From: Acidimicrobiia bacterium
GTDB taxonomy: Bacteria; Actinomycetota; Acidimicrobiia; IMCC26256; JACDBD01
Direction of reading: 5' to 3'
Length of the DNA stretch: 64,000 nucleotides
Assembly (NCBI GenBank): GCA_035938395.1
Contig: DASZGY010000023.1
Location: 5,340-69,339, forward strand
Shown here: positions 240-44,300 of the stretch, in pieces
How the letters are laid out: every line of letters begins with the position of its first letter
Position numbering within the stretch: position 1 is the stretch's first letter
Made by a program: the position numbers and the translations under genes
Notes under the pieces: generated by a model
The model's input: only the letters and a program-made list of their open reading frames with translations
Databases searched by the model: none
What the model was told of the DNA's origin: nothing

Positions 240-1730
240 TCAGAGCCACTGGCGCAGCTTCTTCTTGCTCGCCGCGTCCCACACCTCGCCCCACTCGCTG
301 CGGGTGCGTTCGATCTCGACGCGCTCGAGCGTCGCGAGCTGCCCGGCCACGAACACCTCGCGGCCGATCGTCGACGACGAGACATCGCGCAGCCACTGCT
401 CGGCGACGACGGCGTCCTGATGCTCGCCGAGCACCTCCTGGACGTCGGCGATCGCCTTCGCGAACGCACGGGCTCGCTTGCCGACCGCCGGCGCGACGGC
501 TTCGGCTGCGTAGCGACATCGCTTGGCCTTGATCCGGATGTGGTGGAGCTCCTCGTCGGCCGGATCGTCGGGAAGGTCGTCCACGGCGGTGCGCAGCTTC
601 TCCCACGGCTTGCTCACGAGCGGCGGCAGGACGTCGGCGGCGCGGTCGGCGGCCGCCGAAGGGACGAGCGCCGGCTCGCGTGCGGCTTCCACCAGGCGGT
701 CGAGGAGCTCGGCGTACTGCCTGCTCCCGAGCGCCTCGCGCAGATCGGCTCGCGCCGCGTCCCAACGCTGGAGCAGCCGCTGGATGATCTTCCTGGCGGT
801 TGCCTGATCGGCGGCGGGGAGGCGTTCGGCGTGGGAGCGCAGCCGGTCGAGCAGGACCTCGGTGTCGCGAACGGCGCCGAGGTCGGCGCCGATGGCCTTC
901 AGGTCCTGGCGCAAGGATTTCGTCCAGTCCGGATCGAGGAGGGAGTGGAACGTGCGGAGGTCGGACCGCAGGCGGCGCGTCGCCACCCGGGCTTGGTGGA
1001 CGTCTTCGGGATCGTCGCCGAGCCGGACGCCGGGGTCGTGGGCGATCAGTCGCGCGACCGACGCGGCCAGCGCGTTGCGGATCGCGTCGCCGGCCGACGG
1101 CGACGGCCCGAGACGCTGCACCGCGGTGACGTCGGGCGGCTCCAACGCTCGCCAACCGAGGGCGCGCACGATGTTGGGGTTCGAGTCGGGCGGCCCGGCG
1201 CCGGCGGCGCGCAGCCGGGAGACGATCGCTTCTACGAGACCTTCGGGCGCGGCGTCGTCGACCTCGACCTCGAGCTCCCGGAACCGGGCGGCGACGCGTC
1301 CGCGCGCCAGCACCGTCACCTCGTCGTCGAGCACTTCACCGAGCGACTTCTCGGACGCGTCGTGGAGCTCGACGCGTCGGCGGCGGGTCCGCAGGCGCGC
1401 GACCGGCGCGACCCGCGCCGTGCGCACGAGCGCCCGCACCAGGTCGACGGCCGCCGGCGGCGGCTGGTCCGCCGCCCCCTCGAAACGGTGCTCGTCGTGC
1501 GGGAGCTGGGGCCCGGTCGGGGTCTCGCGGCCGAGCGTCACAATCCAGCCCTCGTCGCCGCGGTACAGCAGCGTCACGCCGGCCCGGGCCAGTCGCAGGT
1601 CGGGCGTGTCGTGGTACGTCAGCTCGATCACGGTCGGCCCGGCCTCGTCGGCGGCGATCCCGTCCACGAGTCCGTTCAGCTGGGGAAGATGAAACCCAGG
1701 GGGCGACGAGAGGAACTCGTGCGAGCTCAC
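240..1730 (-). CDS. CYTH + CHAD domain protein (the type associated with polyphosphate granules)
   Basis: Real part of ORF 240..2903. It starts at GTG 1730 (VSSHEFLSSPPGF...). The N-terminal CYTH-like region is IELTYHDTPDLRLARAGVTLLYR. The C-terminal CHAD-like helical region is DPEDVHQARVATRRLRSDLRTF ... LHHIRIKAKRCRYAAE. The GTG overlaps the ppk stop (GTGA). Confidence 0.85.
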   Translation of the reverse strand: MSSHEFLSSPPGFHLPQLNGLVDGIAADEAGPTVIELTYHDTPDLRLARAGVTLLYRGDEGWIVTLGRETPTGPQLPHDEHRFEGAADQPPPAAVDLVRALVRTARVAPVARLRTRRRRVELHDASEKSLGEVLDDEVTVLARGRVAARFRELEVEVDDAAPEGLVEAIVSRLRAAGAGPPDSNPNIVRALGWRALEPPDVTAVQRLGPSPSAGDAIRNALAASVARLIAHDPGVRLGDDPEDVHQARVATRRLRSDLRTFHSLLDPDWTKSLRQDLKAIGADLGAVRDTEVLLDRLRSHAERLPAADQATARKIIQRLLQRWDAARADLREALGSRQYAELLDRLVEAAREPALVPSAAADRAADVLPPLVSKPWEKLRTAVDDLPDDPADEELHHIRIKAKRCRYAAEAVAPAVGKRARAFAKAIADVQEVLGEHQDAVVAEQWLRDVSSSTIGREVFVAGQLATLERVEIERTRSEWGEVWDAASKKKLRQWL

Positions 1731-3868
1731 GCCCGGGGTTCGACCGCGCGTGCGCGCTGAATGGCGAGCTCCTCCAGCTGACGCTGTGTGTTGACATCCG
1801 CAGTGCGCGGCACACGTTGCCATGTGCCATCGCTTTCGAGCTTCCATGCCAGCGTGTCGTCGGCCAGGTTGATCGTCAGGATCTCGTCGAGCCGGTCGCG
1901 CATTGCGGGCGCGGTCACCGGCACGAGTGCCTCGACCCGCCGGTCGAGGTTGCGCGGCATGAGGTCGGCGGATCCGATGACGTACTCGGCCGTGTGCGGG
2001 TCGGGACCGAACCGGTAGATGCGCGAGTGCTCGAGGAACTGTCCGACGATCGAGCGCACGTGGATCGTCTCCGAGAGGCCCGGCACTCCCGCGCGCAGGC
2101 AGCAGATTCCGCGCACGATGAGATCGATCGGTGTCCCCGCCTGTGACGCGCTGTACAAGGCGTCGATCATCTCGGGGTCGACGAGGCTGTTCATCTTCAT
2201 CGTGATGCGCCCGGCCGGCCCCAGCTCGGTTTGGCGCTCGATTCGCTTCAGGAGCTCGGGCCTGATCGTCACCGGTGCGACGAGCAGCTTGCGGTACTGG
2301 CCCTGTCGGCTGTACCCGGTGAGGTAATTGAACAGCTCGGTCAGGTCGGCGCCGAGATCCGGGTCCGCGGACAGCAGGCCGAGGTCCTCGTAGGTCATGG
2401 CCGTCTTGGGGTTGTAGTTGCCCGTGCCGACGTGGCAGTAGCGCCGGATGCCGTCGGGCTCCTGACGCACGATGAGGAGGATCTTCGCGTGCGTCTTGAG
2501 GCCGACCAGCCCGTACACGACGTGAATTCCCGCCTCTTCGAACAGCTGGGCCCGTTCGATGTTGGCCTGCTCGTCGAATCGTGCCTTGAGCTCGACGAGC
2601 GCGACGACCTGCTTGTCCTGCTCGGCGGCGTGGATGAGCGACCGCACGAGCCGGCTGTCGGGGCCCGCGGTGCGGTACAGCGTCTGCTTGATCGCGAGCA
2701 CCTGCGGGTCGCGCGAGGCCTGCTCGACGAACGCCTCGATGGACGTCGCGAACGAGTCGTACGGGTGGTGGACGAGGACGTCGCCCTGTTGGAGGACGCG
2801 GAACAGGTCGGGTGGCCCGTCGGCGCGGGCGAGGACGGGCTGGGTCTGCGGTGCCCACGGCTCGTCCTCCAGCTCCGGACGATCGAGGCCGTACAGCCCC
2901 CACAAGCCGCTGAGGCCCAAGGGGCCGTCGACCACGTAGACGTCGGAGTCGCCGAGCTCGAGCTCGCGGCAGAGGAGCTCCAGCACCTCGTCGCTCATCT
3001 TCCCGTCGACCTCGAGCCGGACGACGCGCCCGAACTTCGTGCGCCGGCGCAGGATGAGCTCCATCGCCTCGAGGAGGTCCTCGGCGTCGTCGGAGAGCTC
3101 GAAGTCGGCGTCGCGGGTGACCCGGAAGGGGTGGTGGGCGACGGACTCCATGCCCGGGAAGAGGCTGTCGAGATGCGCCGCGATCACCTGCTCGAGCGGA
3201 ACGAACCGCTCGCCGTCGGGGAGCACGAGGAAGCGGGGCAAGAGGGGGGGCACCTTGACGCGGGCGAAGCGCTCCTCACGGGTCACCGGGTCGCGCACCA
3301 CCACCGCAAGGTTCAGCGACAGGTTCGAGATGTACGGGAACGGGTGCGCGGGGTCGACCGCCAGCGGCGTGAGCACCGGGAACACGCGCTCGTCGAAGAC
3401 GCCGTGAAGGTGTTCCCGGTCCACCTCCGACAGCTCGTCCCAGTCGCAGAACCGGACGCCGGCCTCGTCGAGCGCGGGCGCGACCTCGCCGGTGAAGATG
3501 GCGGCCTGCCGTTCCATCATCGGCTCCACCCGGGCGCGGATCGCGCGCAGCTGCTCGGCGGCGTCGAGGCCATCGGGTGAGGTGGCGCGGATGCCGGCGT
3601 CGAGCTGCTCACGCAGCCCCGACACCCGAACCTGGAAGAACTCGTCGAGGTTCTGGCTGACGATGGCGAGGAACTTCACCCGCTCCAGGAGCGGGACGCT
3701 CGCGTCCGCCGCGAGAGAGAGCACGCGGCCGAAGTAATCGAGCGCGGAGAGCTCGCGGTTGAGGTACCGCGATTCGGGTTGGAGTTGGGTCGGGGGATCG
3801 ACAGCGGGCTCGACGGCGGGTGCGCTGCTGCCCTCGACCGACACATCGAGGCCGGCCATGGCCCACAT
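1727..3868 (-). CDS. ppk: polyphosphate kinase 1
   Basis: Taken from MWAMAGLDV... within ORF 1727..5605. PPK1 hallmarks: RYLNRELSALDYFGRVL, LLERVKFLAIVSQNLDEFFQVRV, LKTHAKILLIVR, GSADLMPRNLDRRVE. About 713 aa. The upstream ~570 codons of the ORF are Arg/Gly/Pro-rich read-through. Confidence 0.95.
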   Translation of the reverse strand: MWAMAGLDVSVEGSSAPAVEPAVDPPTQLQPESRYLNRELSALDYFGRVLSLAADASVPLLERVKFLAIVSQNLDEFFQVRVSGLREQLDAGIRATSPDGLDAAEQLRAIRARVEPMMERQAAIFTGEVAPALDEAGVRFCDWDELSEVDREHLHGVFDERVFPVLTPLAVDPAHPFPYISNLSLNLAVVVRDPVTREERFARVKVPPLLPRFLVLPDGERFVPLEQVIAAHLDSLFPGMESVAHHPFRVTRDADFELSDDAEDLLEAMELILRRRTKFGRVVRLEVDGKMSDEVLELLCRELELGDSDVYVVDGPLGLSGLWGLYGLDRPELEDEPWAPQTQPVLARADGPPDLFRVLQQGDVLVHHPYDSFATSIEAFVEQASRDPQVLAIKQTLYRTAGPDSRLVRSLIHAAEQDKQVVALVELKARFDEQANIERAQLFEEAGIHVVYGLVGLKTHAKILLIVRQEPDGIRRYCHVGTGNYNPKTAMTYEDLGLLSADPDLGADLTELFNYLTGYSRQGQYRKLLVAPVTIRPELLKRIERQTELGPAGRITMKMNSLVDPEMIDALYSASQAGTPIDLIVRGICCLRAGVPGLSETIHVRSIVGQFLEHSRIYRFGPDPHTAEYVIGSADLMPRNLDRRVEALVPVTAPAMRDRLDEILTINLADDTLAWKLESDGTWQRVPRTADVNTQRQLEELAIQRARAVEPRA

Positions 3869-4114
3869 GGTAGTTGCGTCTCCCCGTTGGTCCCTCGGCG
3901 CTTGGAACCAGGCGCAATCCCGCGGCGCTGCCACCGCGATGACGACGACCCACCGGCCCGGCGTGCGGGCCGGCGAGCCGCCGGCTCGTCGGCCGGCGGG
4001 GGGACCCGGCCGACGGAGCGCACGGGGAAGTGCGGAGACTCTGCCCTCCCCGGAGGTTGCCGCCGCAGACGGCAGGCAGCCGCGGAGCTGCACGGGTGAC
4101 GCTACCGACGAGAC

Positions 4115-5596
4115 ATGGCACGCAAATTGCCGCCGAAGGAACGGCGTGTGAACTCTCCCGTCCACCCGGCGCAGGCGGTGGCGGCCTATAACGTTGCTTC
4201 GGCCATGGCCACGGCACCGCCTCCTCGTCGCCCCCCGCATCCGGGGCCGACCGACCACCGCTTCGCCGAGCCCACGCCGTTCGCGCGTCTTGCGATCACC
4301 CACGCTGCGAGCATCTGCGGCGACGTCTGCCTGACCGTCTCGCTGGCCGGGTCCCTGTTCTTCTCCGTGTCTCCCGGCCAGTCGCGAGAGAAGGTCCTGC
4401 TGTACCTGATCATCACGATGGCGCCGTTTGCCGTGATCGCGCCATTGCTCAGCCCCCTCCTCGACCGGATCCGCGGGGGCAGGAGGTTGATGATCCTCGC
4501 CACGTGCGCGGTACGAGCGGTGCTCTGCCTCTTCATTGCGCGCTACGTGAATGCGAGCGGCGCCGAGGCCCTCCTGATCTACCCCCTGGCCTTCGGCCTG
4601 CTCGTGATGCAGAAGACGTACACGATCGCCCGGAGCGCGCTCGTGCCCTCGCTCGTCAGCGGCGAGCGCGAGCTCGTGACCGCGAACTCGCGCCTCGCGA
4701 TCATCGCCGTCGTCGGGGGCTTCGTCGGCGGCCTGCCGGCCATCGGCGTCTACAAGCTCTTCGGTGCCGAGGGGTCTCTGATCCTCGCCGCGCTCGTGTA
4801 CGCGCTCGCGGCGATGCTCTCGTGGCAGATCCCTCGCGTCGAACGCGAGCAGGTCGGGCCGGACACCGAGCTCGAGAAGGAGGAGCTGCACGCTCCGAGC
4901 ATCATCCTGGCCGGCAGCGCCATGGGTCTGCTCCGGGGCGCGGTCGGTTTCCTCACGTTCCTCCTCGCCTTCGGACTCCGCCACAACGACGAGGCGCCGT
5001 GGGTGTTCGGTCTCGTCCTCGTCCTGAGCGGCGTCGGCGGGTTCATCGGCAATCTCTTGGCGCCCCAACTGCGCAAGATCGCGCGCGAGGAGGTCATTCT
5101 CGCCGGCTCGCTCGTGCTCCCCGCGGTTGGGTGCTTGTTCGCGGCTCGCTCGGCTTCGCTCGCGATGACGACATTCGGGGCGTTGCTCATCGCCGCCGGC
5201 GCGGCCGCGGGACGCGTCGCCTTCGACAGCCTGCTCCAGCGCGACGCGCCCGACGCGATTCGAGGGCGCAGCTTCGCCCGCTTCGAGACGCGCTTCCAGA
5301 TCACGTGGGTGGCCGGCGCGTTGATCCCGGTTGCGATCCCGCCCGTCTACCAGGACCTCCGCATCGGCTTGTTCGTGCTCGCCATCGGCCTCGGTTTCGC
5401 GGGGCTGTCGTACATCGCCGGCATGCGCGCCGCTCGCGAAGCCGTCGCGCGCCGTCGCCGTCGTATGGAGCGCACCCGGGAGACGGTCGAGCGCGGCTTC
5501 CGAGCCGGGCTCGCGCGGTTGCGTCATCCGGGACGCCGTGCACGAACCGGCGGGGAGCCCTCCAAAGGCAGGGGAGAAATCGAGGCCGGCTCGTAA
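4115..5596 (+). CDS. polytopic membrane protein, MFS-like transporter
   Basis: Multiple hydrophobic helices throughout (LTVSLAGSLFFSV, LLYLIITMAPFAVIAPLL, LIYPLAFGLLVM ...) and a basic C-terminal tail. The start could be ATG 4115 or ATG 4205. The family call is by overall architecture only. Confidence 0.6.
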   Translation: MARKLPPKERRVNSPVHPAQAVAAYNVASAMATAPPPRRPPHPGPTDHRFAEPTPFARLAITHAASICGDVCLTVSLAGSLFFSVSPGQSREKVLLYLIITMAPFAVIAPLLSPLLDRIRGGRRLMILATCAVRAVLCLFIARYVNASGAEALLIYPLAFGLLVMQKTYTIARSALVPSLVSGERELVTANSRLAIIAVVGGFVGGLPAIGVYKLFGAEGSLILAALVYALAAMLSWQIPRVEREQVGPDTELEKEELHAPSIILAGSAMGLLRGAVGFLTFLLAFGLRHNDEAPWVFGLVLVLSGVGGFIGNLLAPQLRKIAREEVILAGSLVLPAVGCLFAARSASLAMTTFGALLIAAGAAAGRVAFDSLLQRDAPDAIRGRSFARFETRFQITWVAGALIPVAIPPVYQDLRIGLFVLAIGLGFAGLSYIAGMRAAREAVARRRRRMERTRETVERGFRAGLARLRHPGRRARTGGEPSKGRGEIEAGS

Positions 5597-5619
5597 CGAC
5601 GTCAACTAGACAAGAGGCC

Positions 5620-13790: not shown

Positions 13791-14954
13791 TCACTGCGCG
13801 TTCCCGGGCTCGGCCGGGGCCGTGCCCGCGGTCGCGCTCGCATCCCGCTGGTCGCCGAGCTCGAGGCCCACTCGGCGCTGCCCGCGGTCGCGATACACCG
13901 TGACGTTGAGCTGCTCACCCGGCTTGCGCCGCCCGACCTCGCTCATCAGCTGGGAGACGCTCGAGATCGCAGTCGTCGAGCCGGCTTTCCCGACGTCGAC
14001 GATCACGTCGCCCTGCACGAGCCCCGCATTGTCGGCCGGGCCGCCGGGCACGACGCCCTGCACGCGTGCCCCGCCGCCGGTGCGGTCGGTGTCGTCGGTG
14101 GCCCAGACGCCGAGCCAGCCGTGCTCCGCGCTCCCGCGTGCAGTCAGCTGCGAGGCGACGTCGCGTGCCTGGTCGATCGGGAGCGCCAGACCCGCGGTGG
14201 AGGAGTCCGGCGGCACGACGAGGATGCCGACGACCTCGCCCCGGGTGTCGACGAGCGCGCCGCCCGAGTGCTCGCCGCTCGCGGTCATGTTCGTCTGAAT
14301 GAGACCGGCCACCGAGACGCCCCCGTCCGACACGAACGCTCGGTTGAACGATCCGATCTCGCCCACGTCGACCCAGCGGTGGCGTCCCGATTCGGACGCC
14401 GCCACGCCGACAACCTGCTGACCAGCCTCGAGGCCGGCCGACGCCCCGAGCTGCGCGGGTTGCATGCTCGTCCCGTCGACCGTCAGGACGGCGAGGTCGG
14501 AGACGGGGTCGCTGGCGTCCACGGCTGCCGGCAGCGTGCGGCCATCTGACGTGACGACCGCCACCGCGTCCGCGCCGTCGACGGCGTGCGCCGTCGTCAC
14601 GATCTGCCCCGCCTGCACGCAGACTCCCGACGCCCGTCCCGTCTCGTTGCCGCGCGCGGTCCGCACCGCGACCACGCTGGGCGCCAGGGTCGCCACCATC
14701 CTTTGGATCGCGCCGCTGCGCGCGCTCGGCGTGGGCCGGCTCGAGTTGTTGACGGTCATGAGCGCGACGACACCGGCGACGGCCGCGACCACGGTCAGGC
14801 CGGCGGCGAGCGCAACCCAGCGACCGCGTCGCGACGCCCGAGGCCGTGTCGTCGCGACGAACGACGTCATCTCGGTGGGGTGAACCCAGATCCGATCAGA
14901 CGGGTCGGGCGGCGGGCCGCCGGAACTCTCGTCCTCCGGCTCGTTGCCCGGCAT
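13791..14954 (-). CDS. HtrA-like trypsin-family serine protease with PDZ domain, membrane anchored
   Basis: ATG 14954 (MPGNEPED). TM segment WVALAAGLTVVAAVAGVVAL. Protease motifs TTAHAV, DLAVL and GEHSGGALV. C-terminal PDZ GLVQGDVIVDVG. Confidence 0.85.
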   Translation of the reverse strand: MPGNEPEDESSGGPPPDPSDRIWVHPTEMTSFVATTRPRASRRGRWVALAAGLTVVAAVAGVVALMTVNNSSRPTPSARSGAIQRMVATLAPSVVAVRTARGNETGRASGVCVQAGQIVTTAHAVDGADAVAVVTSDGRTLPAAVDASDPVSDLAVLTVDGTSMQPAQLGASAGLEAGQQVVGVAASESGRHRWVDVGEIGSFNRAFVSDGGVSVAGLIQTNMTASGEHSGGALVDTRGEVVGILVVPPDSSTAGLALPIDQARDVASQLTARGSAEHGWLGVWATDDTDRTGGGARVQGVVPGGPADNAGLVQGDVIVDVGKAGSTTAISSVSQLMSEVGRRKPGEQLNVTVYRDRGQRRVGLELGDQRDASATAGTAPAEPGNAQ

Positions 14955-15122
14955 AGCGCGGAAGTGTACGACCGTGTTCCTGAACAACGGTCGCGGCTTG
15001 TCGGTCGCCGTCGCAAGCTCCGGGCCTGCGCCGACGGTCGGCAAAGCCGCCGCCGCCGCGGCCTCTCGGCTCGCGGCGCGCCTTCCCGGCCGACAACGGG
15101 GTGCCGCAGTACGCTGATTTTC

Positions 15123-15602
15123 GTGCTCGCGCCCCCTGACGGACGCGACTGGGTTGCCCTCACGTCGCTGCCGCTTCCCGCCGAAGCTGCCAACGCCTGG
15201 GTCACCACACCGGGCAGCGGCGCAGTCGTCTCCTTCGTCGGAGTCGTGCGCGAGCACTCCGAGGGCCGGACCGGTGTTCGGGGACTCACGTACGAGGCGT
15301 ACGAACAGGAGGCGACGCGCCGGCTCGCAGAGATCGCCGACGAGCTGCGGCGGCGCTGGCCCGATATCGAGCGCGTCGCGCTCCTGCACCGCGTCGGTGA
15401 TCTCGCGCTCTCCGAACCGTCCGTGATCGTGGTGGTCTCGGCGCCGCATCGCGCCGAGGCGTTCGAGGCGGCCCGGTTCGGCATCGACACGCTGAAGGAG
15501 ACCGTGCCCATCTGGAAGCGCGAACACTGGGACGACGGCTCCGAATGGGCCGAGCACGCCAGCCCCGTCCGCCCGGTCCGCCGGTCGACCAAGGCCGGGT
15601 GA
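15123..15602 (+). CDS. moaE: molybdopterin synthase catalytic subunit
   Basis: GAVVSFVGVVREHSEGR..V..LTYEAYE...ALLHRVGDL...EPSVIVVVSAPHRAEAFEAARFGIDTLKETVPIWKRE. The start is taken at GTG 15123, but the true start is uncertain. Confidence 0.85.
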   Translation: MLAPPDGRDWVALTSLPLPAEAANAWVTTPGSGAVVSFVGVVREHSEGRTGVRGLTYEAYEQEATRRLAEIADELRRRWPDIERVALLHRVGDLALSEPSVIVVVSAPHRAEAFEAARFGIDTLKETVPIWKREHWDDGSEWAEHASPVRPVRRSTKAG

Positions 15603-15608
15603 TCGGTC

Positions 15609-16616
15609 CTGGCCCGGGATCTCGCCATCGACCTGGGTACCGCCAACACGCTGGTCTATTCACGCGGCGAAGGCATCATCGTCAACGAGCCGACGGTCAT
15701 CGCGCTCAACAACCGCACCAACGAGGTGCTCGCGATCGGTCACGAGGCGTGGCAGATGATCGGCCGCACGCCCGGGTACATCGTCGCCGTCCGGCCCCTG
15801 CGCGGCGGCGCGATCACGGACTTCGAGATCACCGAACGTCTCCTCCGCATGCTCTTCCAGCGTGCGGGTGTGTCGCGCTTCTACCGGACGCGCGTGCTCA
15901 TCTGCGTGCCGTCGGCGATCACGCACGTCGAGCAGCGCGCTGTACTCGAGGCCGCCCGGCGCGCCGGCGCCGCTCAGACGTTCCTGATCGAGCAGCCGAT
16001 GGCCGCCGCCATCGGCGCGTCGCTGCCCATCCACGAGCCGCTCGGCAACATGATCGTCGACATCGGCGGCGGTACCTCCGAGGTCGCAGTCATCTCACTC
16101 GGTGGCGTCGTCGCTCTGGAGGCGGTTCGCGTCGGCGGGTTCGACATGGACGCCGCCATACAGGCCTACGTGCGGCGCGAGTACGGCGTGGCGATCGGCG
16201 AGCGCACGGGCGAAGAGATCAAGGTCGCGATCGGTTCGGCCTTTTCGACTGACGACCAGTACAAGGCCGAAGTACGCGGACGCGACCTGACGACCGGTAC
16301 CGCCAAGATCATCGTGCTGAGCCCGGAGGAGGTGCGCGAGGCGATCGACGAGCCAGTGCGCGCCATCCTCGAGATCATCGTGCGGGCGCTCGGGCAGACG
16401 CCGCCCGAGCTCGCGCAGGACCTCATCCACCAGGGCGTCCACCTCGTCGGCGGAGGCGGCATGCTGCGTGGCATGGACCACCGCATCTCGAAGGAGACGG
16501 CGCTGCCCGTCCACCTCGTGGACGCCCCCCTCGAATGCGTCGTGCACGGCGCCGGCCGTTGCCTCGAGAGCTTCGACAACCTCAAAGAGATGTTCATGGA
16601 CCGACCGCATTCGTAA
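15609..16616 (+). CDS. mreB: rod-shape-determining actin homologue MreB (start assigned to CTG)
   Basis: ARDLAIDLGTANTLVYSRGEGIIVNEPTVIAL...DIGGGTSEVAVISLGG...LVGGGGMLRG. The phosphate-1 motif DLGTANT lies upstream of the first ATG/GTG/TTG (15726). The frame opens directly after the in-frame moaE TGA (15600-15602). Confidence 0.9.
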   Translation: MARDLAIDLGTANTLVYSRGEGIIVNEPTVIALNNRTNEVLAIGHEAWQMIGRTPGYIVAVRPLRGGAITDFEITERLLRMLFQRAGVSRFYRTRVLICVPSAITHVEQRAVLEAARRAGAAQTFLIEQPMAAAIGASLPIHEPLGNMIVDIGGGTSEVAVISLGGVVALEAVRVGGFDMDAAIQAYVRREYGVAIGERTGEEIKVAIGSAFSTDDQYKAEVRGRDLTTGTAKIIVLSPEEVREAIDEPVRAILEIIVRALGQTPPELAQDLIHQGVHLVGGGGMLRGMDHRISKETALPVHLVDAPLECVVHGAGRCLESFDNLKEMFMDRPHS

Positions 16617-16645
16617 TCCTCGTGTGCAGCGCCGACGCCGGGCAC

Positions 16646-16716
16646 GCCGGCATCGGCCCCCACCCACCCACATGCCCGACGCCTCGCTGCGCTCTTCGCC
16701 GACGGCCGATGCCGGC
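16646..16716. repeat. 13-nt perfect inverted repeat between convergent mreB and HEAT genes
   Basis: GCCGGCATCGGCC (16646-16658) and GGCCGATGCCGGC (16704-16716), separated by 45 nt. Confidence 0.4.
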
Positions 16717-16734
16717 GACCCGTCGCCGTCGCCT

Positions 16735-17385
16735 TCATTCGGAAAGCAGGTCCTCGGCCGCCTGTCTCACTTGCCAGTCGCGGTCTTCGAGCGCGGTGCG
16801 TAATGCGTCGTCGACCTCGCCGCCGTCGAACGGCGCCAGCGCGAGGACGGCACGGCGGCGGACGGCGGGCTTGTCACGGCAGGCGGCGATGATGGCGGGA
16901 AGGCCGGCGGGGTCACCCAGGGCGCCGAGCGCCGCCACCGCAGCCTCGCGGGCGAGGGGGTCGTCGTGCATGCCCGCGACGGCGGCGAGCGCGGGGACCG
17001 CCCGGGCGCGCACTGCGGCGGCGCCGAGCTCGCCGAGCGCCCACGCGCTCGCTTCGATCACGGTGACGTCGTCGTCGCCGAGGAGCTTGAGCAGCGGTCG
17101 GGCGGGCGCGCCGAGCCCGGGGGCGAGGTCCGCGGCGCGCCGCCGCACGGCCGGCTCGGCGTCGGTCATCGCGATCCGCCACGCCGCGGTCGCCCGTCGC
17201 CGTCCGCCGGCCCGGGCGAGCGCGCCGAGCGCCGCCGCCCGCACACGCGGATCGGGATCATCCCGGGCGGCACGTTCGAGATCAGCGGGTGCACCGGCAG
17301 GGAGTCGGGCGCGCAGGCCGAGCGCGGCCGCGTCCGCGGCTCGTTCGACCGCTGTTCGCTGCTCGGCGCGGTCACGGGTGGGCAC
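16735..17385 (-). CDS. HEAT-repeat protein
   Basis: Repeated D..VR..AA.ALG.LG units (DPDPRVRAAALGALARAG, EPAVRRRAADL, DPLAREAAVAALGALGDP, DWQVRQAAEDLL). The start is taken at GTG 17385, and alternatives exist. Confidence 0.6.
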   Translation of the reverse strand: MPTRDRAEQRTAVERAADAAALGLRARLPAGAPADLERAARDDPDPRVRAAALGALARAGGRRRATAAWRIAMTDAEPAVRRRAADLAPGLGAPARPLLKLLGDDDVTVIEASAWALGELGAAAVRARAVPALAAVAGMHDDPLAREAAVAALGALGDPAGLPAIIAACRDKPAVRRRAVLALAPFDGGEVDDALRTALEDRDWQVRQAAEDLLSE

Positions 17386-17443
17386 GGCTAGACGATAGGG
17401 AGCCGCGACCGTTGGCCGGGGTGGTGCATGGCAGGCTCTGTCG

Positions 17444-18562
17444 ATGAACGAGGAGCGGCGCGAGCCCTTTCCGTCTCCGCCCCCGGCGATGCCGCCGTCG
17501 CGCCGGCGGCGCCCGCTCGTCGCTGCCGGCACGATCGCCGGCGTCGTGGCCGTGCTGCTGCTCCTCGCCGGCGCCCTGATCCGCCTGCCGTACGTGCTGA
17601 TCGCCCCGGGAGCGGCGAGCTCGGTGGATCGCGTCGTCAAGGTCACGGGCGCGCCGACGTACGCGCACCGCGGCCAGCTGCTGTTCCTCACGGTCTCCGT
17701 GTCGAGCGATCGCCCCAACGCGTTCGCGGTCCTGTCGGGCTGGCTGGACGACAACACCGACGTGGTTTCGGAGGATGAAGTGCTCCAGGGGCGCTCCCGC
17801 GCCGAGGACGCGCGGCTCAACAAGCTGGAGATGGCCGACTCGCAGATGACCGCCAAGCAGGTCGCGCTCGAGCGGCTCGGTTACACCGTTCCGGTGAGTG
17901 GGGCCGGCGCCGTCGTCACTGCGGTGCAGAAGCGCTCTCCGGCCGACGGCAAGCTCCGGGTCGGCGACGTCATCACCGAGGTGGACGGCCAACCGGTCAC
18001 GCTCGCCGAGCAGCTCGGGCCGATCGTGCGCAGCGGGCCCCCGGGGCAGCCGGTCGCGTTCACCGTGGATCGCGGCGGCAAGAGCATCCCGGTGACGGTC
18101 GTGAGCCGCGCCACGGCGCAAGGTGCCTGCCAGGGCCGCGCCCAAGTCGGCGTCTCGACCTCGACCCGCAGCGAGAAGTTCGACTTCCCGGTCAACGTCG
18201 CGATCGACACCGGCCGCGTGAGCGGCCCGTCGGCCGGGCTCGCGTTCACCCTCACGATCCTCGACGAACTCACTCCCGGCGACCTGACCGGCGGCAAGAA
18301 GGTGGCCGTGACCGGCACGATCCGTTCCGACGGCAGCGTGGGGCCCATCGGGGGCGCCCAGCAGAAAGCGGTGACGGCCCGCCGCGCGGGAGCGAAGCTG
18401 TTCCTCGTCCCGAGCGAGGAGGTCAAGGAAGCGCGCAGCCGCGCCGGCGGGATGAAGGTCGTGGGCATCGGGACCCTCGACGACGCCCTGCGGGAGCTGA
18501 AGAACTTCGGCGGCCAGGACGCCGGCGTGCCGCCCGCGTCACCCTCTACAGCCTGCCCTTAG
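17444..18562 (+). CDS. PDZ-domain S16 Lon-like protease (YlbL/SdrC type), membrane anchored
   Basis: N-terminal [38 protein letters not shown] and the Lon protease C-terminal domain with [16 protein letters not shown] and AVTGTI...VGPIGG..QK. Confidence 0.85.
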
Positions 18563-27549: not shown

Positions 27550-28479
27550 CTACGCGTGCTGGCCCGGCGGCGGGATGGGGTCGGGCATCGTCGGTGGCTG
27601 CGGGCTGGGCGCGAGCGGCGTCGATGAGGTCACGTTGGCGGGCTTACCGCCGAACACGTGCACGGGATCGCCGCGGTTCACGAGCGTGTGGAAGTACTCG
27701 GCGATGTGCATCGGGATGCGTACGCAGCCGTGGGACGCGGGTGTGGTCGGCACCGAGTCGTAGCCGTGCACCGCGATGCCCTTGTTGAAGTAGAACGGGT
27801 TGTACAGCTGGCCGAGCGGTGACTTGTCCCAACCCGGGCGGAACTCGGTATAGGTGAAGTCGCCGGAGGGCGTATTGGCGTCCTCGCACACGTGACTGGT
27901 CGGGTTCTCACGAGGCGTGTCGTAGCAATAGTTCTCACCCGAGCCGGACGACATGGTCGTGATCAGCTTGGGCTGGTAGTTCTCGTAGAGCGTCAGGGTC
28001 TGCCCGGTGATGTCGACCTCGGTGCGGTTCGGCTCCGGCGTCGCGGCCATCGGTTGCTTGTACTGGAAGAAGTTGAGCGAGAACACGTCGGCGTCGGTGA
28101 TGCGACCGGTCGGGGCCGCGCCCCCGAGCTTCTGGAGCGTCTGCACCGCATAGGCGGTCTTCTGGTCGTAGATGCCGTCGACCGGGCCGGGATCGAAGTG
28201 GATGTCGGCCATCCGCTGCTCGTACGCCTGCACCTCCGGCCCTTGGGAGCCGGGGCCCACCACTCCGCCCGGCACCGGGGGGAGTGCTGCCCACGGCGGC
28301 TGGATGATCGTCGTGGGCGGTGGGGCCGCGGTCGTCGGCGCCGGAGCAGCGGTCGTCGTGGGCGCGGCGGTGGTGGGCGTCGGCGCGGCGCGCTTCGTGG
28401 TCTTTTCGTCGCGCAGCGCCGAACCGGCGACGGCGATGCCCGAGACGAAGAGCGCCGCGACCACCAACGAGACGAGCAC
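27550..28479 (-). CDS. L,D-transpeptidase (YkuD) with peptidoglycan-binding domain
   Basis: N-terminal TM, a Thr/Pro/Ala linker, a PG_binding-like segment (GPEVQAYEQRMADIHFDPGPVDGIYDQKTAYAVQTLQK) and the catalytic motif HGYDSVPTTPASHGCVRIP. Confidence 0.85.
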   Translation of the reverse strand: MLVSLVVAALFVSGIAVAGSALRDEKTTKRAAPTPTTAAPTTTAAPAPTTAAPPPTTIIQPPWAALPPVPGGVVGPGSQGPEVQAYEQRMADIHFDPGPVDGIYDQKTAYAVQTLQKLGGAAPTGRITDADVFSLNFFQYKQPMAATPEPNRTEVDITGQTLTLYENYQPKLITTMSSGSGENYCYDTPRENPTSHVCEDANTPSGDFTYTEFRPGWDKSPLGQLYNPFYFNKGIAVHGYDSVPTTPASHGCVRIPMHIAEYFHTLVNRGDPVHVFGGKPANVTSSTPLAPSPQPPTMPDPIPPPGQHA

Positions 28480-28610
28480 GGGGAGTCGGAAAACCTGCCT
28501 CAGGGCTTGCTCCTGTCGACGCTCGGAACTGCGAACTGTACCGGGGCGGTCACACCGGCCGGTGCCACCTGGCCTGCGGACGCCCGGCCCCGCCGGGCGC
28601 CCCGCTCAAA

Positions 28611-31325: not shown

Positions 31326-32141
31326 CTAGGCGAGGATGGTGACGGGGGTGCCGAGCGGCGCCTGGGCGGCGATCTGCTCGATGATGTCGTTCGGGACGCG
31401 GACGCAGCCGTTCGAGATGTTCTGGCCGACCTGACCCGGGTTGCTCGTGCCGTGCACGGCCAGCTGGCCGGGGCCGCCCTTGAACGACGTCAGCACGTCG
31501 GAGTAGCCGGAGATACCGAGGGCGAACACGCCGTAGCCGGCGTTCGGCTGGCTGTGCAGGTCGAGTGGATCGGTGACGTAGAACTTGCCCACCGGGGTCG
31601 GGGTCTTGTCGGCGCCGACCACGACGCCGGAGTCGAGGACGGGCTGGCCGAGTTTCAGCAGCGTGAGCTTGTGCGCACCGAGCTCGATCCTGATCTCGTA
31701 GTCACTCTGCCCGAGGGTGACATCGCTCGCCTTGATCCAGCCGCTCGCCCCGTTGGGCCGGATCGGGAGCAGCACGTTGAGCCAACCCGGGCGGGAGCTC
31801 TGGTCGGTGACGAGGAACGTGCGCGGGAGGCCGTACTCGGTCTTGTCGGACAGCTTCGTGACGGCGGCGGAGGTCTCGACCGCGTCCTGGTACGCCGTGA
31901 GCTGGGGGACCTTCTGCGTCGCCGTGACCGCGGCCACCGGCTTGGGGACGGTGGTGGTCGTCGTGCTGGGGGCGGCGGCCCGCTTCCTGGGTGCGGCCTT
32001 GGCGTCGTCGCGCAGGAGGGCCCATCCGGCTATCCCGGCGACGGCGAGGCCGGCGACCACACCGGCGGCGATCGCAGCCCGTAGGCGTCTGCGGCGCACA
32101 CGGCGCGCAGAACGATCCGAACGCGGAGGGGTAGCTGCCAT
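31326..32141 (-). CDS. L,D-transpeptidase (YkuD)
   Basis: Basic N-terminus plus a TM segment. Catalytic region AVHGTSNPGQVGQNISNGCVRVPN. Confidence 0.85.
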   Translation of the reverse strand: MAATPPRSDRSARRVRRRRLRAAIAAGVVAGLAVAGIAGWALLRDDAKAAPRKRAAAPSTTTTTVPKPVAAVTATQKVPQLTAYQDAVETSAAVTKLSDKTEYGLPRTFLVTDQSSRPGWLNVLLPIRPNGASGWIKASDVTLGQSDYEIRIELGAHKLTLLKLGQPVLDSGVVVGADKTPTPVGKFYVTDPLDLHSQPNAGYGVFALGISGYSDVLTSFKGGPGQLAVHGTSNPGQVGQNISNGCVRVPNDIIEQIAAQAPLGTPVTILA

Positions 32142-32202
32142 GGGGCCCGCAGACTACCGAACAGGGGGCAGGCGGCGGATGCCGCCCCCGACCTCGCGGA
32201 GC

Positions 32203-39913: not shown

Positions 39914-40924
39914 TCAGCTCGCGGCCGACGGGGTCGACAGGGACAGTGCGAAGTCGCCGCCGGGATCGGTCCACCAGGCCGCGAGGCCGAGACCGGCGGC
40001 GGCCAGCTCCGCCTCGACCCGCGCACGGCGGAACTTGGCGCTGATCTCGGTCCGCATCTCCTCGCCGTCCGCGAACTCGACCTGCAGATCGAGCTCGTGC
40101 ACCCGCACCGTTTGCGCGCCGAGCGACCGCAGGCGCATTTCGATCCACTCTTGGTCCGAGTCCCACCGCGCGACGTGCTCGAAGCGCTCCGGCACGAAGT
40201 CGGCGTCGAGCTCTCGGTTCAGCACCGAAAGGACGTTGCGGTTGAACGCCGCCGTCACACCGGCGTCGTCGTCGTACGCGGCCACAAGCCGCTTGGGGTC
40301 CTTCACGAGGTCGGTTCCGAGGAGGAGCGTGTCGTCAGGCGCGAGCCCGGCGGCGAGGCTCCCGTAGAAGTGCGCCCGGCCCTCCGGGTCGAGGTTCCCG
40401 ATCGTGCTGCCGAGGAATGCCACGAGGCGCGTACCGCCTCCCGGGATCCGGTCGAGGTGGCGCTCGAAGTCGCCGACGACGGCGTGCACGTCGACGCCGG
40501 GATACTCGCCTTCGATCGCGCGGGCCGCGTAGCGCAGGGTCGGCTCGCTCACGTCGAACGGGACGAAGCGCCGAAGGGATCCGTGCGCCGAGAGCGCGTC
40601 CAGCAACAGCCGTGTCTTCTCCGACGTGCCCGAGCCCAGCTCGACGAGCGTGTCGGCAGATGTGCGCGCCGCGATGTCTCCGGCGTGCCGGGCGAGGATC
40701 GCGCGCTCGGTACGGGTCGGGTAGTACTCGGGGAGCCGCGTGATCTCGTCGAAGAGGCGGCAACCCTCCTCGTCGTAGAACCACTTCGGCGGGAGGACCT
40801 TCGGGCTCGCGGTGAGGCCGGCACGCGCGTCGGCCCGCAACGCGGCGGCGAGGTCGTCGGGACCGAGGTGGACGTCGACGCGGGACGGCGATGAGGTGGG
40901 GGAGATGGTGGGCCTCTCGATCAG
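39914..40924 (-). CDS. egtD: L-histidine N-alpha-methyltransferase EgtD
   Basis: [52 protein letters not shown]. There is no ATG/GTG between the egtC stop and the conserved core. Start candidates are CTG 40924 (CTGA overlap) or TTG 40840. Confidence 0.9.
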
Positions 40925-41670
40925 AACGGGCGGACTTCGAGCTTGTCGTCGCCGAGCTCGACGACCGAGCCGTCCTTGACGGCTTCCCAGCCGGCCTCGT
41001 CGTCGTACGGCTCCGACGCGACGACAACGGCTCCGGTGAGCTGGCGATCGTCGAACACGAAGAGCGAGTTGCGGCACGCGGTGGCCGCGATGCGCTCGCC
41101 GTCGGTCAGCAGGAGGTTGAGGCGCGCCGTCGTGAGCTCTTCGACCAGTCCGATGACCGAGACCAGCGCGTCGGCGGGCGGCGTGCCGGCGTCGAGCCGG
41201 TCGAGCACGAGCGCGAAGAGGAGCTCCGAGTCGGTGGCGCCGCCAATGCCGAGCGCGCGCGCTTCGCTCACCTTGTGCCGCAGCTCGCGGCCGACGCCGG
41301 TGCGGAACCCGGGCACGAAACCGTTGTGCGAGAAGAGCCACGGGCCCTCGGTGAACGGGGGCGTGCTCGTCTCTTCGATGGGCATGCCCGGTGACGCCGA
41401 GCGCACCGCCGCGAGCACCGCGTTCGAGCTCACGAGGCCGGCGATGCTCGCGAACGAGACGTCGGCCCAGATCTGCCGCGTTGTGCGATAGCGAGCGGGC
41501 TCGACTCGCTTGTCGCGGTCGTACCAGCCGACCCCGAACCCGTCGGCGTTGATCGTCCCGTGCGTCTGGTAGCGCGGCGCGAACGACTGCTGGAGCAACG
41601 AGTGCTCCGGCTTGATGATCAGCTTCTCGAGCGTGACCGAAGGTCCGACGTAGGCGAGGTGGCGGCACAT
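40921..41670 (-). CDS. egtC: ergothioneine biosynthesis amidohydrolase EgtC (class II amidotransferase fold)
   Basis: N-terminal MCRHLAY (Cys2 nucleophile), [11 protein letters not shown] and LFSHNGF. Confidence 0.9.
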
Positions 41671-41676
41671 GCGCGT

Positions 41677-42861
41677 CTACCCGTCGGCCGCGCAGCGGAA
41701 GCCGGAGAAGATCTGTCGCCGGATCGGGTAATCCCAGTTCCGGAACGTGGCGCGGCGCACGCTGGTATCGGTCGCCCACGATCCGCCGCGCAGCACCTTG
41801 TACTCGGGCCCGAAGAACACTTCCGAGTACTCGCGGTACGGGAACGACACGAAGCCCGGGTACCCGGCGAAGTCGGTTGCCGTCCACTCCCACACGTCGC
41901 CGATCATCTGCTGCGGCCCGCCCGGCTCGCCGTCTCGGCTCGCCGCCGCCTCCCATTCCGCCTCGGTGGGCAGACGAGCGCCCCGCCACGTGGCGAACGC
42001 GTTCGCCTCGTGCCAGCACACGTGCTGGACGGGCTCGTCGGGCGGAAGGTCCTCGCGCCGGCCGTAGCGACGGCGCGACCACTCGCCGTCCCCTTCGCGC
42101 TGCCAGAACTGCGGAGCCTCGATCGCGGCGTCCTGACGCCATTCCCATCCGGCCTCGCTCCAGAGCCGCGAGTCGTCGTAGCCGCCGTCGTCGACGAACG
42201 CGCGGTATTGACGGTTCGTGACCGGTGTGCGGTCGATCCGGAACGGCGCCAGCTCGACCTGGTGGCGCGGGCGTTCGTTGTCGTACACCCAGGCGTGCTC
42301 GTCGGTGCCGATCGCGAACGTCCCGCCGGGGACTTCGACCACGCCGGCGCCGTCCTTCTCGACATCGGTAGGACGCCAACCGTCGGCGTCAGGATGCGCG
42401 AAGTTCTCCATCAGCTGGATCGTGGCGAGCATCGTCTCGTCGTGCTGGTGCTCGTGCTGGGCGACCATCCCGTACACGAACCCGTCTCGCAACAGCGGAT
42501 CGTCACTGTCGAGATCGACCGTCGCGAGAACGTCGAGGGCGCGGGCTCGCACACCGGCTACGAAGGCGCGCGCCTCCGCAGGCCCCAGGATCGGCAGCGA
42601 CGGACGGTCCCGACGCGGGTGTTTGAACGCGTCGTAGACGTCGTCGAACAGCTCGTTGGTCGGCGCGGCGCCGACGACCTTGCGCAGCAGCCACAGCTCC
42701 TCGTAGTGGCCGATGTGGGCGAGGTCCCACGCGAGCGGCGACATCAGCGGGGACACCTGGCCGATGAGGTCGGCGTCGTCGATCGGCGCGAGCAGCCCGA
42801 GGGTGCGCTCCCGCGCGCCCTCCAGGCCGGCCTCGATGCGGCTCTCCGTGTCGACGGTCAT
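41677..42861 (-). CDS. egtB: hercynine oxygenase / sulfoxide synthase EgtB
   Basis: DinB-like N-terminus ([23 protein letters not shown]) and FGE-sulfatase-like C-terminus ([25 protein letters not shown]). The ATG overlaps the egtA stop (ATGA). Confidence 0.93.
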
Positions 42862-44183
42862 GCCCACGTGGCCGCCGCGAACTGGTCGGGCTCGGGGATC
42901 AGCGTCCCGTCGTCCTGCCACGCCTCGAGGCGGTCGTCGGCGGGGCACCGACCCTGGGCCACATAGCGGTCGACGAAAGCCTCGACCGCCAGCACCGTGG
43001 TCGCGTCCGTGCCGAGGCGCACCATCGCCCGGAGCGCGACGTCGAACGCATCGCGGGCGGCGCCGGCGAAGTCGGGATGACCGAGGCCGTGGCGGGCGGC
43101 GTCGAGCCAGCGGCCGGCGGTGGGTGCGATCGCGTCCGCGGCGTCGGCGGCGGCGGTGTCGTCACAGACGAGCGTGGTGGCGACGGCCACCGCGGCGCGC
43201 CACCACGGATCGGGAAGCGAGTCGATCATCCGCATCTCGAGCCAGCCGCGCGGCCTCACGGGCGGGAAGAGCGTCGTGAAGTGGTACGAGACGTCGTCGA
43301 GGGTCGGGAAGCCGAGCTCGTGACCGTTCGCGATCCAGTCGCCGAGCGTGAGCGGCTCGAGGATGGGTACGAAGTGCGATTCGTCCCGACGGATGAACAT
43401 CACTCGCGCCGCAAGCGCGTATTCGGTCCACTGTCGCACGGGGTCGGGCTCGCCGTTGCCGTCGGCGGCCGTCGTCCGGGACTCGTCCACGTCGGTCCAG
43501 ACCGCCAGCCGTCGGGAGCGCCATCCACTGGGCGCGCCTTCCGAGAGCGGCGAGTTGGCGAACGCCGCGGCGAGCAGCGGACCGGTGTCGTGGGCGCGAT
43601 GCCAGCGCGCCGCGGCGTCGGCTGCCGTCGGCCCGAGGTCGACGTTCACCTGCACGGCGGCCGTCGATCGCATCATCGTGCGACCGGCCGCGCTCTCGCC
43701 GACGCCCTGGGCGTCGAAGTACGCCTCCATCGCCTCGTAGCGGGGCGAGTCGACGCAGCGGGCGCGGGCCGGGCCGGGGTCGAGGCCGAGCCCGACCAGA
43801 CCGACGCCGTGGTCGGCGAGGGCGGCGCTCAGCGCGGCGGCGTCGGCGGCGATGGACGCGCAGGCCGGGCCGATGCCGCGCAGCGGCGGCGAGCTCAGCT
43901 CGACCTGGCCCCCGGGCTCGTAGGTGAGGCGGCTGCCGGCGGGGAGCTCGGCGCCCGCCTCACCCACGACCTCGTGCCGCACCGGCTGGGTCGGGTCGGC
44001 CAGGCACACGGCCAGCCACTCGACCTCGACGCCGACCCGCCCCGAGGGGGAGGGCGGGAAGCACTGCTCCTCGACGAGTTGACGGACGTCGCGCGTTGTG
44101 AGGGACCGGCGGGCGGCGGGCACGGTTACCGGTACCCGTAGTGGGCGGTGACCCAGGCGAGGTTCCGCACGGGGGATGTCCAT
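42858..44183 (-). CDS. egtA: glutamate-cysteine ligase EgtA (GCS2 family)
   Basis: GRVGVEVEW, LTYEPGGQVELSS, FANSP and TLFPPVRPRGWLEMRMIDS. The start could be ATG 44183 or GTG 44123 (see the upstream ORF). Confidence 0.88.
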   Translation of the reverse strand: MDIPRAEPRLGHRPLRVPVTVPAARRSLTTRDVRQLVEEQCFPPSPSGRVGVEVEWLAVCLADPTQPVRHEVVGEAGAELPAGSRLTYEPGGQVELSSPPLRGIGPACASIAADAAALSAALADHGVGLVGLGLDPGPARARCVDSPRYEAMEAYFDAQGVGESAAGRTMMRSTAAVQVNVDLGPTAADAAARWHRAHDTGPLLAAAFANSPLSEGAPSGWRSRRLAVWTDVDESRTTAADGNGEPDPVRQWTEYALAARVMFIRRDESHFVPILEPLTLGDWIANGHELGFPTLDDVSYHFTTLFPPVRPRGWLEMRMIDSLPDPWWRAAVAVATTLVCDDTAAADAADAIAPTAGRWLDAARHGLGHPDFAGAARDAFDVALRAMVRLGTDATTVLAVEAFVDRYVAQGRCPADDRLEAWQDDGTLIPEPDQFAAATWA

Positions 44184-44200
44184 TGGTACCAGGAGCTCAT
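44126..44200 (-). CDS. candidate 24-codon upstream ORF (MSSWYQWTSPVRNLAWVTAHYGYR) preceding/overlapping the egtA start
   Basis: AGGAGG (44211..44206), a 5-nt spacer and ATG 44200. The TAA stop at 44128..44126 lies 2 nt before the in-frame egtA GTG 44123. Confidence 0.4.
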   Translation of the reverse strand: MSSWYQWTSPVRNLAWVTAHYGYR

Positions 44201-44300
44201 GGGTTCCTCCTGCCAGGTTTCGGTCGGGTCGGTCTCACGTTGTACGGACTCGGGGACGGATCGGACGGGCGGTTTCGTGGAAACGCACCGGCGCGCACTC

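Follow-up and report, generated by a model that had tools for sequence, protein, structure and literature searches.

A CTG codon as the very probable start of mreB in an Acidimicrobiia genome, and its conservation among relatives

The mreB locus

The window analyzed here is a stretch of 64,000 nucleotides (nt) from an Acidimicrobiia bacterium (assembly GCA_035938395.1, contig DASZGY010000023.1, positions 5,340 to 69,339 of the forward strand), and coordinates given without a locus label refer to it. On its forward strand it carries moaE and, immediately downstream, mreB, whose reading frame has no canonical start codon (ATG, GTG or TTG) in front of the ATP-binding motif. The features of this junction are as follows, each with its basis.

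15123..15602, + strand: moaE (molybdopterin synthase catalytic subunit), GTG start, TGA stop; Pfam MoaE
15597..15604, + strand: Shine-Dalgarno (SD)-like GGGTGATC, overlapping the moaE GGG-TGA codons; duplex energy and conservation
15600..15602, + strand: moaE stop codon TGA, in the mreB frame; sequence and translation
15605..15608, + strand: putative untranslated spacer GGTC between the SD element and the start codon; varies among close relatives
15609..15611, + strand: CTG, putative mreB initiation codon (would be read as formylmethionine [fMet] by initiator tRNA); comparison and NCBI HEV3133610.1
15609..16616, + strand: predicted mreB coding sequence, 335 codons plus TAA; Pfam, NCBIfam, TIGR00904 and dN/dS (ratio of nonsynonymous to synonymous substitution)
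15627..15629, + strand: ATC, alternative near-cognate codon in the mreB frame; sequence
15630..15650, + strand: DLGTANT, the phosphate-1 motif of an actin-fold ATPase; residues 8-14 when counted from CTG
15726..15728, + strand: GTG, first canonical in-frame start, used by the IMG call (296 amino acids [aa]); list of open reading frames (ORFs)

The moaE stop TGA (15600-15602) shares the frame of mreB and sits 6 nt before CTG 15609. Past this TGA, the frame reads TCG GTC CTG GCC CGG GAT CTC GCC ATC GAC CTG GGT ACC GCC AAC ACG, which translates as S V L A R D L A I D L G T A N T. The original prediction had stated that no canonical start precedes the ATP-binding motif, that GTG 15726 is the first canonical codon, and that a start there would delete DLGTANT. 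Reading of positions 15000-17000, together with translation, confirmed all of these coordinates: GTG 15726 lies 41 codons past the TGA (ORF 15726..16616, 296 aa) and falls 3' of the phosphate-1 motif, which is encoded upstream at 15630-15650.

Gaps free of canonical starts span 33-103 codons in other ORFs of the window (69% GC genome), and a gap of 41 codons alone is not rare by chance at this GC content. What goes beyond chance is that the gap at mreB holds conserved, domain-matching sequence of an essential protein. In a coarse screen of this one 64-kb window, 41 stop-to-stop ORFs with high GC content at third codon positions (GC3) and some further ORFs were compared with Pfam. In every other screened ORF the Pfam domain begins downstream of the first canonical start, and mreB was the only ORF that needed a non-canonical one.

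The product read from CTG matched Pfam MreB_Mbl (PF06723, E=2.5e-130; profile positions 2-326 of 327 aligned with residues 3-326), TIGR00904 (408 bits, cut-off 365.75; profile positions 2-333 of 334 aligned with residues 2-326) and NCBIfam NF010539 (444 bits, cut-off 293). The phosphate-1 pattern D-x-G-T-x-x-T is present near its N-terminus as DLGTANT. Judged by these matches, the product is a full-length member of the MreB/Mbl family of actin-like ATPases. The upstream gene matched Pfam MoaE (PF02391, E=2.6e-36) over residues 15-126 of 159, and its frame ends ...STKAG-TGA.

The start codon in related loci

We compared the locus with 80 related loci, one genome per species, whose proteins are 67-98% identical to MreB of the window. 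Nearly all are metagenome-assembled genomes (MAGs) of Acidimicrobiia, from many projects and assemblers; individual loci are cited by labels such as L001. DLGTANT was found in 80/80 related loci and served as the anchor, and the codon seven positions upstream of it, equivalent to 15609 of the window, was read as the start column.

In the 81 sequences (80 loci and the window), the start column held CTG in 46, ATG in 18, GTG in 13, TTG in three and ATA in one. It never held any other codon, including any non-initiator Leu codon. A comparison of mreB 5' ends had been proposed as a check on the original prediction; it showed that the homologous codon is always initiation-capable and that the CTG arrangement is clade-wide and not restricted to the genome of the window. 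The earlier worry about a base error was not borne out, as CTG recurs in 46 assemblies from different projects; its conservation in many independent assemblies rules out a sequencing error.

Protein similarity begins exactly at the CTG column (x-A/S/P-R-D-L-A-I-D-L-G-T-A-N-T). The sequence 5' of this column is unrelated between clades, often with an in-frame stop 1-12 codons before CTG. An in-frame stop upstream and no canonical start before CTG were found in 32/46 CTG loci; in L060-L063 the stop lies two codons before CTG, with one codon (GCC or GCG) intervening.

Parsimony changes were counted on a neighbor-joining (NJ) tree of 79 intact mreB genes. The start column required 16 changes, all of which exchange one initiation-capable codon for another. 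It showed no synonymous change among the 44 CTG genes, compared with 7-18 synonymous changes in each of 14 conserved internal Leu columns of the same genes (pooled codons: CTC 53%, CTG 37%, TTG 6%, others 4%). Because internal Leu columns switch freely, an ordinary Leu at the start column would have become CTC many times. These results suggest that the start-column CTG behaves as an NTG initiator, conserved as a codon rather than merely as Leu.

Downstream of it, codons 2-6 (A/S/P, R, D, L, A) keep their amino acids while their synonymous sites vary (Arg CGG/CGC/CGA/AGG/AGA; Leu CTC/CTG/CTT; four codons for Ala). Because these codons are conserved as protein with synonymous variation, translation must begin upstream of ATC 15627; with codons 2-6 translated, ATC 15627 and GTG 15726 are excluded as sole start. 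The relatives' codons and the conserved codons 2-6 thus agree with the original view that CTG 15609 is the only plausible initiator, ATC 15627 being the less likely one. From this comparison, we consider it very probable that translation of mreB starts at CTG 15609.

Against L001-L006, whole-gene dN/dS of mreB was 0.06-0.12 (dS up to 0.45); codons 2-39, compared with close relatives, gave dN of 0.01-0.05 and dS of 0.28-0.65. The original prediction had left room for an unexpressed pseudogene. Purifying selection at dN/dS of 0.06-0.12 rules this out and indicates that mreB of the window is a functional gene.

Two further observations concern individual loci. The single ATA at the start position, a near-cognate initiator, is in L033 (3001-3003 of that locus), which is nested in a CTG clade. 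In three MFD MAG contigs (L034, L035, L070), premature stops or frameshifts interrupt mreB, 29 and 32 codons in for L034/L035 and, for L070, with a match whose length is not divisible by 3. These disruptions are probably long-read indel errors, and they call for caution with start inferences from single assemblies.

Initiation context of the CTG codon

GGGTGATC (15597-15604) lies 4 nt 5' of CTG and is complementary to GAUCACC(U) of the canonical 16S rRNA 3' tail. The 21 nt upstream of the start gave a duplex of -16.3 kcal/mol with GAUCACCUCCUUUCU; the values of control segments were -4.3 and -4.6. From 15599, the position equivalent to the last G of the GGAGG core, the distance to CTG is 9 nt, a spacing that would be workable with the canonical tail.

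The SD motif is kept in L001-L006, L023 and L070, and the spacer that follows it varies: ggtc, cgcc, ggcg, ggc, cgcg and gacg occur in close relatives. The spacer of L004 is 1 nt shorter, which shifts the frame relative to moaE and leaves mreB unaffected. Such length polymorphism, together with free sequence variation, is the appearance that an untranslated spacer would be expected to have.

Mean SD duplex energy was -10.1 in the CTG group, -8.7 in the ATG group and -7.3 in the GTG group. SD pairing was thus somewhat stronger in CTG loci, with a Mann-Whitney p=0.01 for CTG against pooled ATG/GTG/TTG loci, uncorrected for phylogeny.

RNA folding of 15560-15660 showed nothing that stands out (z = -0.75), and Rfam at gathering thresholds and ARAGORN gave no match over the window. 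Consensus scans for promoters and terminators (14400-17000; L064) found nothing, such scans being uninformative for high-GC actinobacterial promoters.

Weighing the CTG start against alternatives

Several points weigh against initiation at CTG 15609. The start is a prediction from sequence comparison. The SD pairing rests on a 16S tail that was assumed to be canonical bacterial, as the 16S gene lies outside the window. In 14/46 CTG loci a canonical in-frame codon lies upstream, at a non-conserved distance of 1-171 codons, and alternative starts are possible there; L004 has an in-frame GTG 3 codons upstream of CTG, and L037 has one directly adjacent. The sequences in the tree share ancestry, and raw counts such as the 46 CTG loci overstate the number of events. 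Initiation complexes of Escherichia coli are more stable on AUG, GUG or UUG than on CUG, and CUG is regarded as a rare start in bacteria (PMC11497404). In the actinobacterium Mycobacterium smegmatis, CTG was not selected as a leadered start (0.03% of reads; PMC4633059). CTG is also ineffective at the leaderless position in mycobacteria (PMC4633059).

Among the alternatives, we considered another in-frame near-cognate start, chiefly ATC 15627 just before DLGTANT. ATC showed low but above-background initiation in M. smegmatis (PMC4633059). A start at ATC 15627 would retain DLGTANT, and this ATC is invariant in 44/44 CTG genes; however, such invariance is expected from GC bias and a conserved Ile, which is present in ATG-start relatives as well. 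The codons that separate CTG from ATC keep their amino acids while varying synonymously and are hence translated, and the SD element is positioned for CTG, with ATC 22 nt away from it. We regard a start at ATC as highly unlikely.

An indel in the assembly or the reads could instead hide a true start at GTG 15599-15601, with one extra base in the sequence. This GTG sits in a classic GTGA overlap with the moaE stop, and in L004 the shorter spacer puts it in frame (V-I-G-L-A-R-D). The IMG proteins P0004 and P0005 begin VIDLARDLAI, and some long-read MAGs do carry frameshifts within mreB (L034, L035, L070). However, the 6-nt gap with an out-of-frame GTG recurs in L001, L002, L003, L005, L006 and L023, assembled in separate projects and with different assemblers, and L070 has the same local sequence as the window at the GTG/TGA/CTG region. 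Distant CTG loci have no GTG at the position equivalent to 15599, the 32 CTG loci described above have no canonical in-frame start at all, and NCBI begins even the L004 protein (HKF90614.1) at CTG. An indel has only a very slight probability on this evidence. A start at GTG 15599, by +1 frameshift or by indel error, was rejected because the out-of-frame layout recurs in independent assemblies.

A start at GTG 15726 would give an N-terminally truncated MreB of 296 aa, as in IMG. It is the first in-frame ATG/GTG/TTG, IMG lists the corresponding product P0121 (VLAIGHEAW...), and similarly shortened MreB calls of 288-327 aa exist for close relatives. Against it, such a product would lose some 39 residues of subdomain IA together with the phosphate-1 motif, the alignments to family profiles start at residue 2-3 of the longer MreB, and purifying selection acts on codons 2-39. 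The same N-terminus is also encoded in relatives whose codon equivalent to the CTG is ATG or GTG. We find this truncation extremely improbable.

A MoaE-MreB fusion through read-through of the TGA, or a decaying pseudogene, is hardly credible: moaE and mreB do share a frame in the window and one database call (P0087, an ENA protein of 493 aa) joins the two domains, but their relative frame varies, many relatives have another ORF or 180-320 nt between them, the two spacer codons between TGA and CTG are not conserved, and dN/dS of 0.06-0.12 with dS up to 0.45 marks a functional gene. In the lineage of P0087, either the moaE stop was lost in frame or the caller extended the ORF upstream for want of a canonical start.

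Upstream ORFs and gene neighborhood

The original prediction had drawn attention to a non-canonical start only 6 nt past the preceding stop. The same gap from TGA to CTG is present in six close relatives (L001-L003, L005, L006, L023), and it is 5 nt in L004. More generally, an upstream ORF terminates at -39 to +5 nt relative to the start of mreB in 46/46 CTG loci, and at -21 to +5 in 45 of them; in most cases it is moaE or a conserved small membrane ORF. Tight stop-start apposition was also seen in most canonical-start loci, whatever the start codon.

The ORF that abuts mreB depends on the lineage. Most of the 80 related loci carry a moaE homolog 5' of mreB, and its frame relative to mreB is 0, 1 or 2; the upstream stop is TGA or TAG. 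In the clade of the window and in the L009-L018 clade, moaE itself is the upstream ORF, with a gap of 4-18 nt in most loci. In other loci, moaE is 180-320 nt from mreB, with a conserved small membrane ORF in between, located about 60-220 nt upstream of mreB (for example, L081 126-299 and L082 111-308). Its product has 55-72 aa, with a single transmembrane helix ahead of RNRRPxSMExSIxEFERxLxALAP; the ORF ends at -16 to +5 nt of the mreB start, where its stop abuts or overlaps mreB. The small ORF was found in L015, L019, L020, L022, L024-L032, L035, L039-L044, L046-L050, L054-L057, L059-L063, L065, L068, L073, L075 and L080-L082. It was searched for in the window and is absent there, and it has no match to any Pfam or NCBIfam family. 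The conserved stop-start geometry suggests that mreB is probably translationally coupled to its upstream ORF.

A different arrangement was seen in seven loci (L064, L066, L069, L072, L074, L076, L077). These have a conserved CCCTACGATGA-N4-GTG and no moaE or other coupled ORF upstream. The CCCTACGATGA element is found 15 nt before mreB (around position 2986-3000 of the locus), and 7/7 loci use GTG. It resembles a -10 box of the TANNNT type, positioned as for an mreB mRNA that is leaderless and initiated at GTG.

Downstream of mreB, the window carries the following genes.

16738-17856, - strand: HEAT-repeat gene, convergent to mreB; Pfam
17444-18559: PDZ/Lon-like protease; Pfam

No mreC or mreD adjoins mreB, and Pfam matches to MreC, MreD, RodA and PBP2 were absent among the approximately 48 ORFs of the window that were scanned. 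This is consistent with the original prediction that neither mreC nor mreD follows mreB, the gene downstream being the convergent HEAT-repeat gene. The latter is syntenic in relatives (L081 1319-1608; L082 1305-1608). The conserved neighborhood is moaE, the optional small ORF, mreB and the HEAT-repeat gene, and not mreBCD.

Existing annotation and literature

An exact-sequence look-up matched the MreB of the window to HEV3133610.1 in NCBI nr (MAG TPA, Acidimicrobiia bacterium), which is the exact CTG-started product of 335 aa and begins M-ARDLAI. HKF90614.1, on a contig matching that of L004, likewise starts MARDLAI. The NCBI protein on DASUCT010000266.1 also starts at CTG, as checked in the DNA (L082 301-303). 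IMG holds the 296-aa truncation from GTG 15726, and products of other callers for relatives are truncated, extended or fused to MoaE. The CTG start of mreB belongs to a known kind, bacterial CUG initiation, and is already in the NCBI annotation. Literature searches on mreB and a CTG start codon, and on MreB in Acidimicrobiia, found no paper; the extent of the conservation and the repeated switching of the initiator appear to be undescribed.

Other features of the window

Three adjacent genes at 40924-44234 (- strand) encode GATase_4, DinB_2 plus FGE-sulfatase, and GCS2 domains; this trio looks like an egtC-egtB-egtA cluster for ergothioneine biosynthesis. Two genes for YkuD-type L,D-transpeptidases, one with PG_binding_1, lie at 27553-28605 (-) and 31329-32153 (-), in the same window as the mreB that has no mreCD. 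In the polyphosphate kinase (PPK) ORF at 1730-5605 (-), the PPK domains start only at residue 614 of a 1292-codon frame, which points either to a very long extension at the N-terminus or to a frame that high-GC DNA leaves open beyond the gene.

Two observations concern moaE. Its frame is open for a further 179 codons upstream of GTG 15123 (14586-15122, +) with no Pfam match, and this segment probably encodes no protein, or does so on the opposite strand. A minus-strand ORF of 622 codons with high GC3 (13791-15659) overlaps moaE; it is probably a shadow frame.

Discussion

We propose the following course of initiation at mreB. The GGGUGAUC SD element (15597-15604) would pair with the 16S rRNA 3' tail and place CUG 15609-15611 about 9 nt past the equivalent of the GGAGG core. 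The CUG would be read by initiator fMet-tRNA, giving an MreB of 335 residues (M-A-R-D-L-A-I-D-L-G-T-A-N-T) with the predicted N-terminal peptide (M)ARDLAIDLGTANTLVY... Ribosomes that end moaE at UGA, 6 nt upstream, may be delivered to the CUG by translational coupling or re-initiation, and the weak start codon probably holds MreB synthesis low relative to that of the upstream gene. Discrimination of translation initiation factor 3 (IF3) against non-canonical starts has been discussed (PMC9723500, PMC2268962), and overexpression of IF3 lowers re-initiation in E. coli (PMC2268962). Speculatively, MreB synthesis may be IF3-sensitive, as IF3 discriminates against non-canonical starts. Confidence in the coupling and the throttle is lower than in the start itself, both being inferred. 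It is possible, and in our view rather doubtful, that the CUG start has been kept by selection across much of Acidimicrobiia as a translational throttle that would work only because the start is served by ribosomes ending the abutting ORF and by a strong SD, the leaderless-looking lineages all having GTG.

The AUU start of infC, which encodes IF3, is the textbook case of a conserved non-canonical start, used there for autoregulation. As in infC, the non-canonical initiator of mreB is conserved on one specific gene and not genome-wide, and a dependence on IF3 proofreading would be expected. Unlike in infC, the codon is CUG and not AUU, no regulatory loop is known, and many relatives have a canonical codon, so that the weak start is not obligatory. 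In rod-shaped bacteria, mreB is canonically part of an mreBCD operon, and Streptomyces has mreBCD as well. The protein of the window resembles the MreB of such operons, being by sequence a full-length MreB/Mbl with an intact nucleotide-binding motif; unlike in these operons, including that of Streptomyces, the gene has no adjacent mreC or mreD.

Experimentally verified CTG starts are those of hda and yfjD in E. coli K-12 (EcoGene 3.0, PMC3531124). Like these, mreB is a housekeeping gene with a conserved N-terminus that lacks a canonical start; its CTG is predicted from conservation and a ribosome-binding site, and gene finders restricted to ATG, GTG and TTG mis-call the start. In contrast to hda and yfjD, the CTG of mreB is kept over a class-level radiation, sampled in no fewer than 44 lineages, between which dS is saturated. 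The codon also interchanges with ATG, GTG, TTG and ATA, abuts an upstream stop, and is a predicted initiator. The geometry, with a stop within a few nt of the start and the SD inside the end of the upstream gene, is that of coupled pairs such as the M13 geneV-geneVII model (PMC2268962). Unlike in that model, the coupling at mreB is suggested by geometry, and the upstream partner differs by lineage (moaE or the small membrane ORF).

The CTG start leaves what is known of MreB, and the principles of initiation, unchanged. Its practical consequence is for annotation. In this clade, callers limited to ATG, GTG and TTG yield MreB of 288-327 aa without the ATP-binding motif, or proteins that are extended or fused to MoaE, and comparative or structural work on MreB of Acidimicrobiia should adopt the CTG-started model. 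The CTG start of mreB would be among the best-supported natural CUG starts in bacteria. At the homologous site, at least 16 switches among CTG, ATG, GTG, TTG and ATA have taken place, which offers a natural series, in an essential cytoskeletal gene, for the study of translational coupling, SD compensation and the strength of start codons. If the throttle does operate, the mode of initiation would dictate which start codons are allowed, with coupled, SD-led lineages tolerating CTG, and the machinery of Acidimicrobiia would use CUG at physiologically useful rates, unlike that of E. coli or mycobacteria.

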